Shown here piece by piece: positions 1,846 through 57,153 of a DNA stretch of 64,000 nucleotides (position 1 is the stretch's first letter; each line of letters starts with the position of its first letter). The stretch lies in contig DAIOHD010000001.1 in NCBI GenBank assembly GCA_036744835.1, forward strand, positions 464,414-528,413, given 5' to 3'. The translations under genes and the position numbers were made by a program. The notes under the pieces were generated by a model. That model was not told where the DNA came from. It saw only the letters and a program-made list of their open reading frames with translations, and did not search any database. The stretch comes from Candidatus Magasanikiibacteriota bacterium. Its GTDB lineage: Bacteria > Patescibacteriota > Patescibacteriia > Magasanikbacterales > GWA2-37-8.

Positions 1846-2020
1846 ACAACAACAAGTTATAAAGTTGAAAGTTATAAAGTTCCAATTGAGAGAATATTAT
1901 AACATTTTTGAGTGAAAAAAACAAAAACCGGCCTTCCGACCAGTTTTAATATTCAATCCGCCCTTCGTCCAGGCTTCGCTAAAACTACACCGGACTACGG
2001 AGAGGATAAGTATCCAATAT

Positions 2021-2491
2021 TCAATATCCAATATCTTTTATAAATTTTTCTAATTTTGATTCGAATTGACTAGTATTCATTTCCTTGTTGTTTATCACCA
2101 CGCTAGCCAGAGATTTCTTCCCGACTAGTGTTTCTATCTCTACTATGGCTTTGTCACTCCCAGAGCCTCCCTGGGTGCAAAAAACAGCCAAATTTAGCAG
2201 TTGCGCCCCATACTTGGTCACAAAAGCGCGCACCGGCGAGCTCATATTCCAACCCCAAATCGGGGTGCCGATAATCACCAAGTCATAAGTCTTTAAATCA
2301 CTTTGAATATTCTCTATCGGGGCGGAGATTTTTTTCATTGATTCTCTACCACATCGAAAATACCCCATCACTCCGGCTCTATCTGTCGGGTCTTTTATTT
2401 CCTCGATATCCGCGTTGAGTTTAGTTTTTAAATTTTCAGCAACTTTACGAGTCATTCCTGTGCGGGAAAAGTATACGACTAATGTGTGCAT
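2021..2491 (-). CDS. flavodoxin-like protein
   Basis: MHTLVVYFSRTGMTRKVAE N-terminus and a GTPIWGW motif; flavodoxin fold. Confidence 0.6.
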   Translation of the reverse strand: MHTLVVYFSRTGMTRKVAENLKTKLNADIEEIKDPTDRAGVMGYFRCGRESMKKISAPIENIQSDLKTYDLVIIGTPIWGWNMSSPVRAFVTKYGAQLLNLAVFCTQGGSGSDKAIVEIETLVGKKSLASVVINNKEMNTSQFESKLEKFIKDIGY

Positions 2492-3308: not shown

Positions 3309-3728
3309 TTAAATCTTTTTTAAAAGATCAGTTAAGTGCAGTTTACCAAAATTACCATTGTAAGTTTTGAGAGTTTTTTCCCATTTTTTGGGAAGCATTT
3401 TTTGCAATTCCGGCATTATAGTTCCGGGAGCAAATAAATAAACGACTTTGGCACTACTAACATTTTTGAGATTATTTTTGAAAGCAGTGAAAGATTCTTT
3501 TTGTAAAAAGTTTTTCATAACCCCCGCCTTATCACCGGACTGAAAAAATACATTACCATATTTGCCGGTTTGTTCCCTATCGGAAAATTTAGTTTTTTCT
3601 ACTGCAAAATCAGCGACTTTGTTTATTTCTCCGTCTTTTGCCAAATAAAAATCCGCGTTTAAATTTCCAGTCACGATAATCGCTGTACTATTTTTCTCAA
3701 ATTGAGGTAAGTTTTTTGGTATTTTCAT
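3309..3728 (-). CDS. hypothetical protein, possibly host-attachment / eRF1-like family
   Basis: N-terminal MKIPKN..TAIIVTGN.NADFYLAKDGEI and C-terminal LFAPGTIMPELQKMLPK resemble the Host_attach architecture; weak, from memory. Confidence 0.3.
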   Translation of the reverse strand: MKIPKNLPQFEKNSTAIIVTGNLNADFYLAKDGEINKVADFAVEKTKFSDREQTGKYGNVFFQSGDKAGVMKNFLQKESFTAFKNNLKNVSSAKVVYLFAPGTIMPELQKMLPKKWEKTLKTYNGNFGKLHLTDLLKKI

Positions 3729-46733: not shown

Positions 46734-46866
46734 GCTCCCGGGGTCGGCGCTTCGCTATTCGAAGTCGTCGCTACGCTCCTCTCACAAAAACCTTCGGGTT
46801 TTCGTGGACTTTCCTCAGCAAGAGAAAACTCCCGTTTTCTCCCTTTCCCGTTCGAATCCTCACCAC
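46734..46866. ncRNA. tRNA-linked structured element, copy A (3' of tRNA-Asn)
   Basis: Left end gctcccggggtcgg-CGCTTCGCT-ATTCGAA duplicates the tRNA-Asn acceptor-3'/T-stem and T-loop with a 9-nt insertion. Hairpin1 cacaaaaacc-TTCG-ggttttcgtg; CU-rich linker; hairpin2 gagaaaac-TCCC-gttttctc; cctttccc. Right end GTTCGAATCC is complementary to the left ATTCGAA. Confidence 0.55.
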
Positions 46867-46872
46867 AGAACA

Positions 46873-46908
46873 AAAAAATATCACCCCATAAATGGAATGA
46901 TATTTTTT
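46873..46908 (-). terminator. hairpin terminator immediately 3' of tRNA-Asn
   Basis: aaaaaaatatca-ccccataaatggaa-tgatatttttt. Confidence 0.6.
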
Positions 46909-46909
46909 G

Positions 46910-46981
46910 CTCCCGGGGTCGGATTCGAACCGACGACCAATTGATTAACAGTCAACTGCGCTACCGCTGCGCTACCCGGGA
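46910..46981 (-). tRNA. tRNA-Asn (GTT)
   Basis: Manual cloverleaf: TCCCGGG TA GCGC AGCGGTA GCGC A GTTGA CTGTTAA TCAAT TGGTC GTCGG TTCGAAT CCGAC CCCGGGA G; 72 nt, no encoded CCA. Confidence 0.8.
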
Positions 46982-50062: not shown

Positions 50063-50140
50063 GATGGATACCTCCCTAAAAATAGTAATGAACGATAATT
50101 TATAATTTTACTCTTAGAAAATTGTTTTGTCAAGATAAAC

Positions 50141-50165
50141 AAAAAAACCTTTGAAAAAGGTTTTC
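50141..50165 (-). terminator. hairpin terminator 3' of element B (copy of the tRNA-Gln terminator)
   Basis: aaaaaaaccttt-gaa-aaaggtttt. Confidence 0.55.
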
Positions 50166-50175
50166 TGTTTATAAG

Positions 50176-50318
50176 TTCCGAGGCTTGGCGCTTCGCTACT
50201 CGAAGTCGTCGGTCTTCGGCCTCCTCCTTGGAAAACCTTCGGGTTTTCCAATACCTTTCCTCCTCATAGAGAAACCTCCCGGTTTCTCCCTTCCCCAGTT
50301 CGAGTCCAAGCTCAAGAC
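50176..50318. ncRNA. tRNA-linked structured element, copy B (3' of tRNA-Gln), with its own minus-strand promoter and terminator
   Basis: Left end ttccgaggcttgg-CGCTTCGCT-ACTCGAA duplicates the tRNA-Gln 3' end with the same 9-nt insertion. Hairpin1 ttggaaaacc-TTCG-ggttttccaa; linker cctttcctcctca; hairpin2 gagaaacc-TCCC-ggtttctc; right end TTCGAGTCCAAGC. Minus-strand TTGAAA-16-TATAAT at 50320..50347. Confidence 0.6.
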
Positions 50319-50319
50319 A

Positions 50320-50347
50320 ATTATATAAACAAAAAAACCTTTTTCAA
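50320..50347 (-). promoter_or_regulatory. sigma70-like promoter (TTGAAA-16-TATAAT) oriented into element B
   Basis: Minus strand reads ccTTTGAAAaaggtttttttgtttaTATAATtgtcttgag; the -35 lies in the loop of the tRNA-Gln terminator hairpin. Confidence 0.45.
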
Positions 50348-50366
50348 AGGTTTTTTTGTTTATAAG

Positions 50367-50437
50367 TTCCGAGGCTTGGACTCGAACCAAGATAGACAGC
50401 TTCAAAGGCTGTTGTCCTACCTTTAGACGACCTCGGA
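50367..50437 (-). tRNA. tRNA-Gln (TTG)
   Basis: TCCGAGG TC GTCT AAAGGTA GGAC A ACAGC CTTTGAA GCTGT CTAT CTTGG TTCGAGT CCAAG CCTCGGA A; U1-A72; 71 nt. Confidence 0.8.
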
Positions 50438-52034: not shown

Positions 52035-52189
52035 AGTGATATTATTATAACACAAAAAAAATAAACGAGCTAATCCCGCTTATTGTGGACAAAATTTTAT
52101 TTAAACCATCGTTTAGCCCGTCATCACTTGAACCCTCTATCAGAATCATCAAACTGATGTTTGTGGTTTACCTGCCCGACATGCCTTTG

Positions 52190-52262
52190 AGCCATCTCGG
52201 GGATTCGAACCCCGGACCTACGGTTTACGATACCGTTGCTCTACCAACTGAGCTAAGATGGC
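52190..52262 (-). tRNA. tRNA-Thr (CGT)
   Basis: GCCATCT TA GCTC AGTTGGTA GAGC A ACGGT ATCGTAA ACCGT AGGTC CGGGG TTCGAAT CCCCG AGATGGC T. Confidence 0.8.
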
Positions 52263-52291
52263 GTGTCTTTGGCGGGCGGGCGCGATACCAT

Positions 52292-52316
52292 CGTTCTACC
52301 ACTGAACTAAAGGGGC
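52292..52316 (-). pseudogene. truncated tRNA 5' fragment (acceptor plus D-arm only)
   Basis: GCCCCTT TA GTTC AGTGGTA GAAC G, then no anticodon or T arm; followed by GC-rich filler and then tRNA-Thr. Confidence 0.35.
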
Positions 52317-52384
52317 TTAGGCAAAGGCGGGTAGGTCTAATCTGAGCGGGATAGGAATCTCACTGCTCGTCCGCCTTAAACGGA

Positions 52385-52465
52385 CTGCGCTTTGAGAAAC
52401 CTTCGGGTTTCTCAAGAACTCTTCCTCCTCAAGAGAAAACTCCTGTTTTCTCCCTTTCCCTTCAT
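52385..52465. ncRNA. tRNA-linked structured element, copy C (core only; directly 3' of tRNA-Gly)
   Basis: Hairpin1 ttgagaaacc-TTCG-ggtttctcaa; linker ctcttcctcctca; hairpin2 gagaaaac-TCCT-gttttctc; cctttccc. Lacks the tRNA-derived end pieces. Confidence 0.5.
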
Positions 52466-52492
52466 CCTTGCTTGCCCGCCAGGCTTCGTCTG

Positions 52493-52563
52493 AGCGAGTA
52501 ACGAGAATCGAACTCGCGTCTCATGCTTGGGAAGCATGCATACTACCATTGTACTACACTCGC
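52493..52563 (-). tRNA. tRNA-Gly (CCC)
   Basis: GCGAGTG TA GTAC AATGGTA GTAT G CATGC TTCCCAA GCATG AGAC GCGAG TTCGATT CTCGT TACTCGC T. Confidence 0.75.
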
Positions 52564-52590
52564 GCAAACGAAGCCGGCGGGAGAAGGATA

Positions 52591-52615
52591 CATACTACCG
52601 ATGTACTAATCCCGC
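52591..52615 (-). pseudogene. second truncated tRNA 5' fragment, just upstream of tRNA-Gly
   Basis: GCGGGAT TA GTAC ATCGGTA GTAT G (D-arm near-identical to tRNA-Gly), then TATCCTTCTCCCGCCGG with no anticodon stem. Confidence 0.35.
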
Positions 52616-56641: not shown

Positions 56642-56799
56642 ATAATATAGTAGAAATTAACTTATCCACTGTTTTTTAAATCAGGGACTTGATTTTTTTA
56701 TAAATTTAGTATATCATAATGAACGTTATTTTGTCTAATCCAAGCCAAAGACAAAATGGCGTAACTTTGCCAATAAAGGCAGAAATAATGGGCCGGTAG

Positions 56800-57080
56800 C
56801 CCCTCACCTATACCTTTATGTTTTACGTTTATCTTATAAAAAGTAAAATAGATGAGAGCACCTACATTGGCTATACAAACGATCTAAAAAGACGCTTGGT
56901 TGAACACAACAAAAGACTGAATAAGTCTACCAAGAACAAAGCGCCTTTTGAGCTCGTTTATTACGAAGCTTATAAAGAAATGGCTGACGCAAAACATAGA
57001 GAATTTAATTTAAAACGTTTTGCCAAAGCTTATCAACAGTTAAAACTACGCCTTAAGGACAGCCTAAAGGCATAGGTGAG

Positions 57081-57083
<3 letters not shown>
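56800..57083 (+). mobile_element. GIY-YIG gene cassette bounded by 12-bp perfect inverted repeats, inserted at the 5' end of tRNA-Lys with an 11-bp duplication of the tRNA 5' end
   Basis: IR-L cccctcacctat (56800..56811), IR-R ataggtgagggg (57072..57083). Direct repeat GGGCCGGTAGC at 56790..56800 and at 57081..57091, the latter being tRNA-Lys nt 1-11. Confidence 0.5.
56818..57075 (+). CDS. GIY-YIG nuclease superfamily protein (UPF0213/YhbQ-like, 85 aa)
   Basis: MFYVYLIKSKIDESTYIGYTNDLKRRLVEHNK; the stop codon lies inside IR-R. Confidence 0.8.
   Translation: MFYVYLIKSKIDESTYIGYTNDLKRRLVEHNKRLNKSTKNKAPFELVYYEAYKEMADAKHREFNLKRFAKAYQQLKLRLKDSLKA

Positions 57084-57153
<70 letters not shown>

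Follow-up and report, generated by a model that had tools for sequence, protein, structure and literature searches.

Free-standing homing-endonuclease cassettes lie in the tRNA gene regions of T4 (SegB) and T5-like phages (PMC2330249), and REPIN/REP-RAYT and tagged-REP sequences are small hairpin elements (PMC3116915, PMC3733652). The tRNA genes of Patescibacteria are rich in group I introns (PMC13011429). Here we describe element A, located beside a tRNA-Asn gene in a 64 kb window (the whole stretch of DNA that was analysed) from a Candidatus Magasanikiibacteriota bacterium. Element A is a copy of an uncatalogued family of structured non-coding modules of 135-150 nt, found in Patescibacteria at the 3' side of tRNA genes. 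A literature search found no description of this module.

The module shares several properties with tRNA-targeting integrative elements (attL/attR, CIME): the tRNA is kept intact, a direct repeat of the tRNA 3' end starts from the T-loop region, empty sites occur in related genomes, and there are tandem partial copies. It differs in having no nearby integrase, in an insert that in every copy is a terminator plus ~140 nt, in a 9-nt insertion inside the repeat and an inverted copy of the repeat at the other end, and in loci with 5' remnants, replacement tRNA alleles and a covarying fold.

With the phage cassettes, and with homing of the intron/intein type, it has in common GIY-YIG genes tightly beside tRNA genes, a split target gene whose halves flank the insert (L095, also window copy C and L109), a high-identity tract that ends inside gene sequence (element B against L076), and tRNA alleles that replace each other. 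However, the hosts are cellular CPR genomes and not phages, the GIY-YIG proteins have 81-94 aa, function is kept by a whole replacement tRNA instead of splicing, the structured module has no counterpart, and the link between nuclease and module is here a candidate one.

REPIN/REP-RAYT sequences and MITEs are likewise short non-coding hairpin elements, presumably moved in trans, with compensatory changes, and the same hairpin module is found flanking a nuclease gene in Flavobacterium. In contrast to them, the module is low-copy, divergent and tied to tRNA genes, its ends are target tRNA sequence, and the protein is a GIY-YIG protein and not a Y1 transposase. Finally, like the guide RNAs of mobile elements (TnpB/IscB omega RNA, IS110 bridge RNA; PMC13565253), the module is a structured scaffold of ~120 nt with ends matching the DNA of the insertion locus, and in L092a and window copy C the 5' arm fits the invaded allele. 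Unlike in those RNAs, the two "guides" of the module pair with each other, no TnpB, IscB or IS110 gene is present, Rfam has no match, and L098 shows the opposite pattern. We regard this likeness as a resemblance only.

Copies of the module in the window

The features of element A and its tRNA gene are:

46909..46981, minus strand: complete tRNA-Asn (GTT) (ARAGORN; Rfam tRNA, 72.2 bits; sequence)
46873..46908, minus strand: terminator-like hairpin separating tRNA-Asn and element A (16-pair stem, then a T run)
46735..46870, minus strand: element A, the entire structured module (covariance model R1, 149.9 bits; alignment; fold)
46850..46859, minus strand: 5' arm GGATTCGAAC, the reverse complement of tRNA positions 53-62
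46822..46841, minus strand: hairpin 1, GAGAAAAC-GGGA-GTTTTCTC (8/8 pairs covary in the family)
46783..46806, minus strand: hairpin 2, CACGAAAACC-CGAA-GGTTTTTGTG (covaries; G.U pair on the minus strand only)
46748..46766, minus strand: hairpin module GAC-TTCGAAT-AGCGAAGCG, a T-loop-like sequence and the invariant 9-mer
46735..46747, minus strand: 3' arm CCGACCCCGGGAG, which with the next C (46734) makes a 14-nt copy of tRNA-Asn 61-74

Element A thus runs from the 5' arm through two hairpins and the hairpin module into the 14-nt tRNA 3' copy, in all ~136 non-coding bases. Two further copies, B and C, lie beside other tRNA genes:

50366..50437, minus strand: tRNA-Gln (TTG), with the T-loop variant TTCGAGT
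50176..50320, minus strand: element B, the second module copy (covariance model, 130.7 bits; 99% identical to L076)
50140..50175, minus strand: second copy of the tRNA-Gln terminator, downstream of B (sequence; empty site in L109)
52492..52563, minus strand: tRNA-Gly (CCC), allele GCGAGTG...CACTCGC, the replacement allele at its locus
52342..52490, minus strand: element C, a third, divergent copy without the 9-mer (covariance model, 58.8 bits)
52583..52615, minus strand: 5' remnant of the resident tRNA-Gly (nt 1 to ~34), GCGGGATTAG..., upstream of the complete tRNA-Gly (aligned to the empty alleles L101/L107)

According to the first-pass annotation, the element ends are built from the T-loop and the acceptor 3' sequence of the adjacent tRNA plus a 9-nt insertion, and for A and B the sequences bear this out. 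The tRNA-Asn gene terminates in TTCGAAT-CCGACCCCGGGAG, its positions 54-74 (TTCGAATCCGACCCCGGGAGC) recur as the 3' end of element A, and the element terminates on the minus strand (46766-46735) in GACTTCGAAT-AGCGAAGCG-CCGACCCCGGGAG. Likewise, tRNA-Gln terminates in TTCGAGT-CCAAGCCTCGGAA and element B in GACTTCGAGT-AGCGAAGCG-CCAAGCCTCGGAA (50207-50176). The opposite end is, as had been stated, the inverted T-loop, GGATTCGAAC in A and GCTTGGACTCGAAC in B (50311-50298). Two occurrences of the 24-mer GACGACTTCGARTAGCGAAGCGCC are present in the window, whereas 100 shuffles gave an expectation of 0.00.

The three copies are divergent, with a mean column identity of 77% between A and B over the aligned tRNA and element regions. 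The same 9-nt insertion had been described for A and B; both carry it, C does not. Around B the target is duplicated over ~62 nt, from the T-loop through the end of the terminator. Element C ends in GATTCCTATCCCGCTCAG, the sequence that forms the 3' terminus of the other, resident allele of tRNA-Gly.

Downstream of A and B are ORFs of 107 aa and 112 aa, respectively. Neither has a Pfam match and the 112-aa gene is also found in relatives without the module, so no protein is linked to the module. The 107-aa protein has three database matches only, the window's own sequence and two homologs, and the two proteins look unrelated when their translations are read by eye.

Family anatomy and fold

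Pattern scans and a covariance model identified ~16 distinct loci in Magasanikbacteria, Nomurabacteria and other CPR contigs. Over the family, the 5' arm is the reverse complement of tRNA positions 53 to ~66 and follows three T-loop variants (AAT, AGT, ATT). The two covarying hairpins are joined by conserved purine-rich linkers (GGGAAAGG, GAGGAAAG, GGAGGAG), and the invariant hairpin module, CG-A-CUUCG-AAUAG-CGAAG-CG (a possible fold of this part of element A), is followed by 14 nt of tRNA positions 61-74. Past the 9-mer, the identity to the tRNA is exactly these 14 nt in A, L029 and L067, 17 nt in L014, and extends through the terminator end in B. The duplicated tRNA segment is also longer in L094 and has a different start in C-type copies.

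By predicted pairing, the 5' and 3' arms are able to close the element into a single helix. The 13-bp closing helix proposed in the first-pass annotation is found in B, while A has 9 contiguous pairs only; over the family the helix has 8-17 bp. In a covariation test with 18 sequences, 96% of the cells are paired and 13 pairs have double changes, and either value was reached in 0/500 shuffles. One pair is U.G in 10 sequences, compatible with the tRNA-sense strand only, and these G.U pairs indicate that the tRNA-sense strand is the one that folds. Of the earlier suggestion of an RNA mimicking the tRNA 3' end, the folded tRNA-sense strand and the strong covariation make "structured RNA" reasonable. 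However, the 3' end is no minihelix-type tRNA mimic, since it has no 5' acceptor strand and no T-stem 5' strand.

In Rfam 15, including tRNA-like RNAs, Y RNA/YrlA, RNase P, ribozymes and omega RNAs, only tRNAs reach the gathering threshold in the window. At E<=10 there are weak overlaps, all below the gathering score (best E=0.057), and the best of them overlap the tRNA itself. Three identities suggested by short motifs were rejected. For RNase P, GAGGAAAGUCC resembles CR-I in A only, just GAGGAA(A/G)G is conserved, and there is no CR-V partner. For a hammerhead, CUGAGGA is present in A, yet CUGA is not conserved. For a small ORF, Shine-Dalgarno-like runs are not followed by a consistent start codon.

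Empty sites, displaced tRNA ends and GIY-YIG genes

The comparison with relatives that the first-pass annotation had suggested does turn up sites without the element, at tRNA-Gln and at tRNA-Gly/Thr. In L101 and L107 (FtsX 88-89% identical) tRNA-Gln has no module, and tRNA-Gly and tRNA-Thr are just 6 nt apart. In L109 (FtsX 87%) the same tRNA-Gln allele is directly followed by terminator and promoter, a clean empty site for B. The module is also missing in L103-L105, and its distribution among close relatives is patchy. Empty sites in relatives this close (FtsX 87-89% identical) show that the element is an insertion. For A no empty site was found in the relatives, because synteny breaks past the DUF6938 gene.

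The ftsX genes of the window and L076 are 80.1% identical, against ~99% for tRNA-Gln, terminator and element B. This tract begins 4 nt ahead of tRNA-Gln and continues to CCAAGCCTCG in the 3' arm, and beyond it the sequences are unrelated. The near-identical unit shared by these divergent genomes thus includes a complete tRNA. The 99% identity of B could alternatively reflect purifying selection as strong as that on the tRNA and not recent transfer.

Copies at non-tRNA sites without tRNA-specific ends had been named as an observation that would speak against integration at tRNA genes. Non-tRNA sites do exist (L092b/c, L093, L094, L064), but the copies there keep tRNA-type ends. The ends were also said to track the neighbouring tRNA, which is the case in A and B; in L098, L092a, L095, window copy C and L109, however, the 3' tRNA piece mismatches its neighbour. 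In window copy C and L109 the 5' remnant of the resident tRNA-Gly comes first and is followed by GC-rich filler, by a complete tRNA-Gly of another allele, by the module and finally by the resident 3' end. In L095 the resident tRNA-Ser is split in the T-loop, and ARAGORN recognises the two joined pieces as tRNA-Ser. The halves enclose a GIY-YIG gene with a frameshift, a complete tRNA-Ser whose acceptor stem differs, and a truncated copy of the module. In L028 a 12-nt 5' remnant and GC hairpins lie upstream of the tRNA-Asn.

Since the allele differs from the adjacent tRNA and a matching 5' remnant is located upstream, the partial copy in several loci is the displaced end of an invaded tRNA gene. 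For A and B a 5' remnant was looked for and none was found, their partial copy does not differ from the tRNA beside it, and these two copies are explained just as well by a simple target duplication or by gene conversion. In L092a and window copy C the 5' arm corresponds to the invaded allele and not to the element's own tRNA; L098 is the opposite.

GIY-YIG ORFs are located directly upstream of a module-bearing tRNA in L014 and L095 only. Another (56818-57075) is found at tRNA-Lys in the window, and none at A, B or C. The proteins (81-94 aa) have no DNA-binding domain. Co-occurrence at two of the ~16 module loci could be due to chance, both targeting tRNA genes. An obligate unit of GIY-YIG gene and module was considered and is weakened by 12 loci of the window's GIY-YIG subfamily without module.

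Proposed mechanism and alternatives

Our preferred reading, which we put forward tentatively, is that the module is a non-autonomous, structured part of cassettes that invade tRNA genes. Being insertion-polymorphic, it would be mobile DNA without an enzyme of its own. The tRNA-derived 14-mer would be target DNA, i.e. the duplicated or displaced 3' end of the invaded tRNA gene, and the working tRNA upstream would be either completed by duplication or a replacement allele that arrived together with the module. On this reading, tRNA, terminator and module may travel between genomes as a gene-replacement cassette. Integration may proceed by recombination or double-strand-break repair, with the tRNA as homology on the left and the copy of 54-74 on the right. 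Whatever makes the break or carries out the strand transfer would act in trans, and the small GIY-YIG nucleases at the same tRNA loci are the best, unproven, candidates for the enzyme. The fold may be required in cis for propagation, or be that of an expressed RNA that uses its closing helix to sequester the orphan tRNA 3' fragment.

Some points stand against the cassette reading. The duplication has a fixed end (exactly 14 nt, 61-74) in three independent loci, which is more like a fixed target duplication or recombination core than variable homologous crossovers, and a nuclease recognising the T-loop/3' region would not spare the intact proximal tRNA of filled alleles. Further, no simple crossover model accounts for the position of the invariant 9-mer between the T-loop-like sequence and the 14-mer.

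A possible but rather unlikely alternative is a hairpin transposon like a MITE or REPIN, with terminal inverted repeats ATTCGAAC ... CTTCGAAT and a 14-bp target duplication at tRNA 3' ends, moved as folded ssDNA by a Y1/HUH or GIY-YIG protein in trans. Every copy has an inverted repeat of 9-17 bp. The exact 14-nt duplication in three loci agrees with the transposon reading, and so does the minimal form in L067, where the tRNA is directly followed by ATTCGAAC...AGCGAAGCG with the 14-mer on both sides. As DNA, GCGAAGC reportedly forms a mini-hairpin of exceptional stability. The GIY-YIG unit of the window is itself bounded by inverted repeats (CCCCTCACCTAT / ATAGGTGAGGGG) and by 11 duplicated nt from the 5' end of tRNA-Lys. 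These ends recur in L112, a locus that lacks the module and contains a weak Y1_Tnp ORF. No transposase is linked to the module, and this ORF is the sole candidate. In Flavobacterium the same hairpin module flanks YhbQ-like GIY-YIG ORFs. However, copies within one genome are old and divergent (A against B 77%) with no burst of near-identical copies, the duplication length varies (B, L094, C-type copies), the inverted arms reach into target-specific sequence, unlike transposon ends, and a further process would have to account for the replacement alleles and 5' remnants.

The "T-loop copy" and the 9-mer are contained in the hairpin CUUCG-ARUAG-CGAAG-CG, which is also seen in repeats of Flavobacterium that have no tRNA close by. 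This part may therefore be a module in its own right and not derived from the T-loop. The Flavobacterium repeats were rejected as a homologous family, as the covariance model matches the 16-nt hairpin only; a shared module is claimed, not a shared family.

We consider it doubtful that the copies are miniature integrative elements of the CIME type, moved by a tyrosine integrase in trans, with a core from the T-loop to the 3' end, an attL that rebuilds the tRNA and an attR that is the partial copy. Direct repeats of the tRNA 3' end do flank the insert and start in or just past the T-loop, reportedly the classical layout for T-loop-targeting integrases. The repeat extent fixed at 14 nt in A, L029 and L067, the empty sites, and the tandem partial copies in L028, typical of repeated integration, point the same way. 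Of the tRNA-targeted site-specific integration proposed at first, the insertion at tRNA genes, the empty sites and an attR-type, junction-like copy stand, but neither an integrase nor a free form was found. No HxLRH[TSA] motif was found in ORFs of at least 120 aa in the window or ~30 loci, the genes called around the loci have no integrase Pfam, and no recombinase is in or near any copy. Nor did the search for integrases or larger elements with the same core, as the annotation had envisaged, give any in the ~30 loci or in phage, plasmid and IMG/VR sequences: there is no full-length larger element among the ~16 loci, and phage/plasmid blastn and IMG/VR pattern scans gave no match to an extrachromosomal form. 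Moreover, ~200 bp of inserted DNA is very little to form a circular intermediate, the supposed attR core is broken up by the 9-mer, integration at the 3' end does not generate 5' remnants of resident genes, and the whole terminator is duplicated in B and L094.

It is likewise improbable that the module is a resident small-RNA gene, transcribed together with the tRNA or just after it, with a closing helix of anti-T-arm and tRNA 3' half and ends kept by gene conversion, which would act on the tRNA or its fragments, for instance by pairing to the T-arm/3' half or as a decoy for an enzyme or toxin that targets tRNA 3' ends. The strong covariation, the strand-specific fold and the tRNA-like conservation (99%) are consistent with such a gene. 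In L067 no terminator separates tRNA and module and the tRNA's own 3' end doubles as 5' arm. B is preceded by a promoter-like site, TTGAAA-16-TATAAT (50347-50320, 11/12 match), embedded in the terminator, and most copies are equipped with a terminator of their own. The 5' arm of L111 retains full complementarity to the T-loop although the 3' arm misses part. Against it are the patchy distribution among close relatives, the orphan-ended copies at non-tRNA sites, the truncated copies (L095, L111), the lack of an Rfam family, and the mismatches to the adjacent tRNA in several loci, which argue against simple homogenisation.

Very unlikely, in our view, is RNA-guided homing that replaces tRNA alleles, in which the module would be a guide/scaffold RNA (or folded DNA) for a minimal nuclease, the hairpin CUUCG-ARUAG-CGAAG-CG a protein handle and the 5' arm a programmable guide, complementary to 53 to ~70 of the tRNA gene about to be invaded, the two together giving an 85-aa GIY-YIG domain its target specificity. 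The remnant or miniature of a self-splicing intron, whose 5' arm would resemble an internal guide sequence aligning a 5'-exon-like UUCGAAU with a 3'-exon-like CCGAC... and whose 9-mer ends in G, is hardly tenable: the arm can pair with the sequence on either side of the 60/61 junction, group I introns are abundant in Patescibacteria tRNA genes (PMC13011429) and the hairpin loops accept large insertions (L028), but neither Intron_gpI nor another ribozyme matches even at E<=10, a group I core would not fit into so small an element, in which no P7/G-site equivalents were recognised, and the adjacent tRNA is complete without splicing while the joined flanks give no tRNA.

The tRNA genes of streamlined Patescibacteria appear to be hot spots for small selfish units, i.e. 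structured modules, GIY-YIG units, GC hairpins and whole replacement tRNAs, which split, duplicate and replace essential genes whose function is nevertheless retained. Both tRNA prediction and searches for genomic islands will be misled by such partial and nested tRNA copies. A conserved, covarying module with ends from its target sequence and absent from Rfam is a candidate for a new cis-acting mobility structure or small RNA, and the association of its hairpin with GIY-YIG genes across phyla leads to a testable hypothesis on the role of the widespread YhbQ-like proteins.

Layout, family and fold of the module

On the minus strand, tRNA-Asn is directly followed by a terminator-like hairpin and then by the 136-nt element A; element B is arranged in the same way after tRNA-Gln. 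Sequence reading, ARAGORN and Rfam show that the layout and the tRNA-type ends were described accurately in the first-pass annotation. The 13-bp closing helix proposed there exists in B, while A has only 9 contiguous pairs.

Features at two of the module-bearing tRNA genes of the window
46909-46981, minus strand: tRNA-Asn (minus-strand reading, ARAGORN, Rfam)
46870-46735, minus strand: element A, starting ...GGATTCGAAC, with the 3' end GACTTCGAAT-AGCGAAGCG-CCGACCCCGGGAG
50366-50437, minus strand: tRNA-Gln (minus-strand reading, ARAGORN, Rfam)
50320-50176, minus strand: element B, with the 3' end GACTTCGAGT-AGCGAAGCG-CCAAGCCTCGGAA

A 24-mer common to A and B occurs twice in the window, against an expectation of none from shuffles. 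No 5' tRNA remnant is present upstream of either element. In A and in two other loci, L029 and L067, the tRNA duplication is exactly 14 nt long (positions 61-74).

We scanned one genome collection and one metagenome set with the 3' motif. True relatives from both scans belong to Candidatus Magasanikbacteria, Candidatus Nomurabacteria and other CPR contigs, some of them mislabelled, and adjoin tRNA-Asn, Gln(UUG), Gln(CUG), Tyr, Ser(CGA) and Ser(UGA). For the window itself, homologues of its FtsX point to Magasanikbacteria/Patescibacteria. With a covariance model from 13 sequences we detected further copies in contigs L092, L109 and L111, as well as a divergent copy in the window, element C (52342-52490), which lies directly 3' of tRNA-Gly and is devoid of the 9-mer, the 9-nt insertion between the T-loop-like sequence and the 3' arm. 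The loci come mostly from metagenome-assembled contigs, and independent assemblies agree. No match to the family was found in Rfam, phages, plasmids or IMG/VR.

Some copies are not at tRNA genes (L092 3340-3702 and 8100-8486, L093, L094, L064), and these retain a 3' arm of tRNA type. Upstream of these copies stands a decayed piece resembling a T-loop/3' end, interrupted by 4-5 inserted nt, e.g. GGTTCGAA[CGTCG]TCCGCGACTCCGAGC, and then a terminator. The two L092 copies follow paralogous genes, which suggests a segmental duplication; by sequence look, the C-terminus of the gene products resembles a putative peptidoglycan-binding domain.

By RNAalifold and pair counting, two hairpins of the module carry extensive compensatory change. 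In an alignment of 18 sequences that had been fitted to the covariance model, 96% of the cells are paired and 13 pairs have changed on both sides; 0 of 500 shuffles reach either value, and the pairing falls to about 50-59% in slid controls. G.U pairs, among them one column with U.G in ten sequences, fit the tRNA-sense strand only; it is therefore this strand that folds, either as RNA or in the form of single-stranded DNA. The purine-rich linkers GGGAAAGG, GAGGAAAG and GGAGGAG are conserved.

Two pairings of the ends are possible. Either the T-loop-like sequence and the tRNA 3' copy form a single helix with the 5' arm, with the 9-mer bulged, or an outer helix is combined with a local hairpin, CG-A-CUUCG-AAUAG-CGAAG-CG, leaving GGAUUCGAAC unpaired; minimum-free-energy folding favours the latter. 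Across the family the arm pairing spans 8-17 bp and covaries with the tRNA-type sequence (CCAAGC/GCTTGG, CCTAGTCCGC/GCGGACTAGG, CCCAC/GTGGG, CTCAT/ATGAG). Three T-loop variants (AAT, AGT, ATT) are matched by the 5' arm, and the hairpin module tracks the AGT variant, in one independent event only.

Invaded tRNA genes and empty sites

The ftsX-tRNA-Gln neighbourhood of relatives was retrieved and compared with the window. Empty sites in sister genomes, the check proposed in the first-pass annotation, were found both at tRNA-Gln (L101, L107, L109) and at tRNA-Gly/Thr (L101, L107). In L101 and L107 (FtsX 88-89% identical) tRNA-Gln has no module, and the gap from tRNA-Gly to tRNA-Thr is only 6 nt. 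L109 (FtsX 87%) has exactly the tRNA-Gln allele of the window, followed directly by terminator and promoter, which makes it a clean empty site for B; in comparison, the window carries in addition the module and a duplication of ~62 nt, from the T-loop to the terminator end. The module is absent at the locus in L103-L105, and the module at tRNA-Gln in L111 is of the C type. L106 carries, at the same place after tRNA-Gln, an unrelated hairpin-rich insert of ~170 nt (3487-3680), then GATTCCAAGCCTCGGAA and a terminator, and then an orphan anti-T-loop arm, GCTTGGAATCGAAC; small structured inserts of several kinds therefore use the T-loop junction. The tRNA-Gln locus is a hot spot, since close relatives show at least five states of it.

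Compared with locus L076, the window has only 80.1% DNA identity in ftsX but is ~99% identical from 4 bases before tRNA-Gln, through the terminator and B, to CCAAGCCTCG in the 3' arm, beyond which the sequences are unrelated. The apical loop of the tRNA-Gln terminator (window 50324-50364) is TTTGAAAAA, flipped to TTTTTCAAA in L076, i.e. a loop inversion of a palindrome; a second terminator copy in the window (50140-50175) has the L076 orientation.

The window and L109 were aligned with empty alleles at the Gly-Thr locus. Both run from the resident tRNA-Gly 5' remnant (window 52615-52583) through GC-rich filler, a complete tRNA-Gly of a different allele and the module to the 3' end that belongs to the resident allele. 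The resident tRNA-Ser of L095 is interrupted within its T-loop (5' part nt 1-57, 3' part nt 61-76). Between these parts lie two GC hairpins, a GIY-YIG gene with a frameshift, a complete tRNA-Ser whose acceptor stem is different, and a module that is truncated; the outer pieces joined in silico are called as tRNA-Ser. In L028, two GC hairpins come after a 5' remnant of 12 nt.

The tRNA-type end had been thought to track the neighbouring tRNA. In A and B the 3' arm is indeed identical to the adjacent tRNA, but it differs in L098, L092a, L095, C and L109, as the split resident genes above explain. The partial tRNA copy is the end of the invaded gene, not necessarily a copy of the neighbour.

Nesting is also seen at tRNA-Thr(CGU) (window 52130-52316, minus strand), where the resident allele (5' part 52316-52283, decayed 3' part about 52171-52130) is interrupted precisely in the anticodon, between positions 35 and 36, by a GC-rich inverted repeat around a complete, different tRNA-Thr allele (52262-52189). 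L111 (1520-1700) is reciprocal to this: of the two alleles, the one that is complete in the window is split there, and the one split in the window is complete. Degenerate tRNA copies in L071 (about 1960-2100, minus strand) and L109 (3440-3520) contain small GC-rich hairpins of 29-32 nt, inserted precisely at position 35/36; a second tRNA-Ser copy has CCACCCTTCGGGTGGTCACCCGCAGGGTG, for example, and the tRNA-Gln 5' remnant has TCCGCCAGAGGGCGGATCCGCCTTAGGCGGA. This position is a reported group I intron site in Patescibacteria tRNAs (PMC13011429). Comparable GC hairpins lie upstream of GIY-YIG ORFs in L095, L109 and L028.

Candidate enzymes and a hairpin shared with Bacteroidota

No tyrosine-recombinase motif was found in any locus scanned. 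Small GIY-YIG ORFs (81-94 aa, Pfam PF01541) are often found at these tRNA loci. In the window one lies upstream of tRNA-Lys; in L101, L107 and L109 they lie down- or upstream of tRNA-Gln, and in L014 and L095 immediately upstream of the tRNA that bears the module. Twelve loci with the window's GIY-YIG subfamily have tRNAs and no module; GIY-YIG and module can therefore be separated, and a common preference for tRNA genes may be enough to explain why they co-occur.

The GIY-YIG unit of the window
56790-57091, plus strand: whole unit, with an 85-aa ORF (56818-57075) ending 5 nt before tRNA-Lys
56800-56811 and 57072-57083, plus strand: inverted repeats CCCCTCACCTAT and ATAGGTGAGGGG
56790-56800 and 57081-57091, plus strand: duplicated first 11 nt of tRNA-Lys

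L112 (1470-1790) has a 73%-identical ORF that is bounded by the same repeats; a tRNA-like 5' end, though a different one, is duplicated there in the same manner. Judged by sequence, the window unit looks like a discrete mobile insertion at tRNA position 11/12. Just upstream of a cluster of tRNA-Ile, GIY-YIG and nested tRNA-Ala, L112 also encodes a 239-aa ORF (599-1318) with a weak Y1_Tnp (IS200/RAYT-like) Pfam match, a possible single-strand transposase of these genomes.

In Flavobacterium and other Bacteroidota, the scan 18-mer ACTTCGAGTAGCGAAGCG also matched about 60 sites, which lie away from tRNAs. Together with its partner ACTCGAACTG it is exact in element B and in a multi-copy repeat of these bacteria, in which the hairpin CUUCG-AGUAG-CGAAG-CG and ACTCGAACTG give a 13-bp helix.

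Flavobacterium repeat loci
L038, 6640-7110
L012, 800-1600
L062, 2700-3900

In L038 and L012, YhbQ-like GIY-YIG ORFs (about 97 aa) have the 31-nt motif CGTCACTTCGAGTAGCGAAGCGTATCGAGAAG on both sides. The covariance model matched the hairpin alone in these repeats, which have no nearby tRNA and no Rfam match, and we found no literature on GIY-YIG-associated repeats. As the same hairpin occurs at tRNA-free, GIY-YIG-flanking sites, the apparent T-loop copy with the 9-mer may not derive from the T-loop but be a portable hairpin module in its own right, tied to minimal GIY-YIG nucleases.

Nature of the module

The module resembles att-flanked integrative elements, free-standing homing-endonuclease cassettes and REPIN-like hairpins, but lacks at least one defining feature of each; it is therefore a variant beside these three kinds and a member of none. 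Its mobility is compatible with homing-type recombination, trans-acting site-specific integration, or hairpin transposition with a 14-bp duplication, and its fold may act either as RNA or as DNA. The best supported reading is that the module is the non-autonomous structured part of tRNA-gene-invading cassettes, in which the 3' end derived from tRNA is target DNA and the 5' arm pairs with it.
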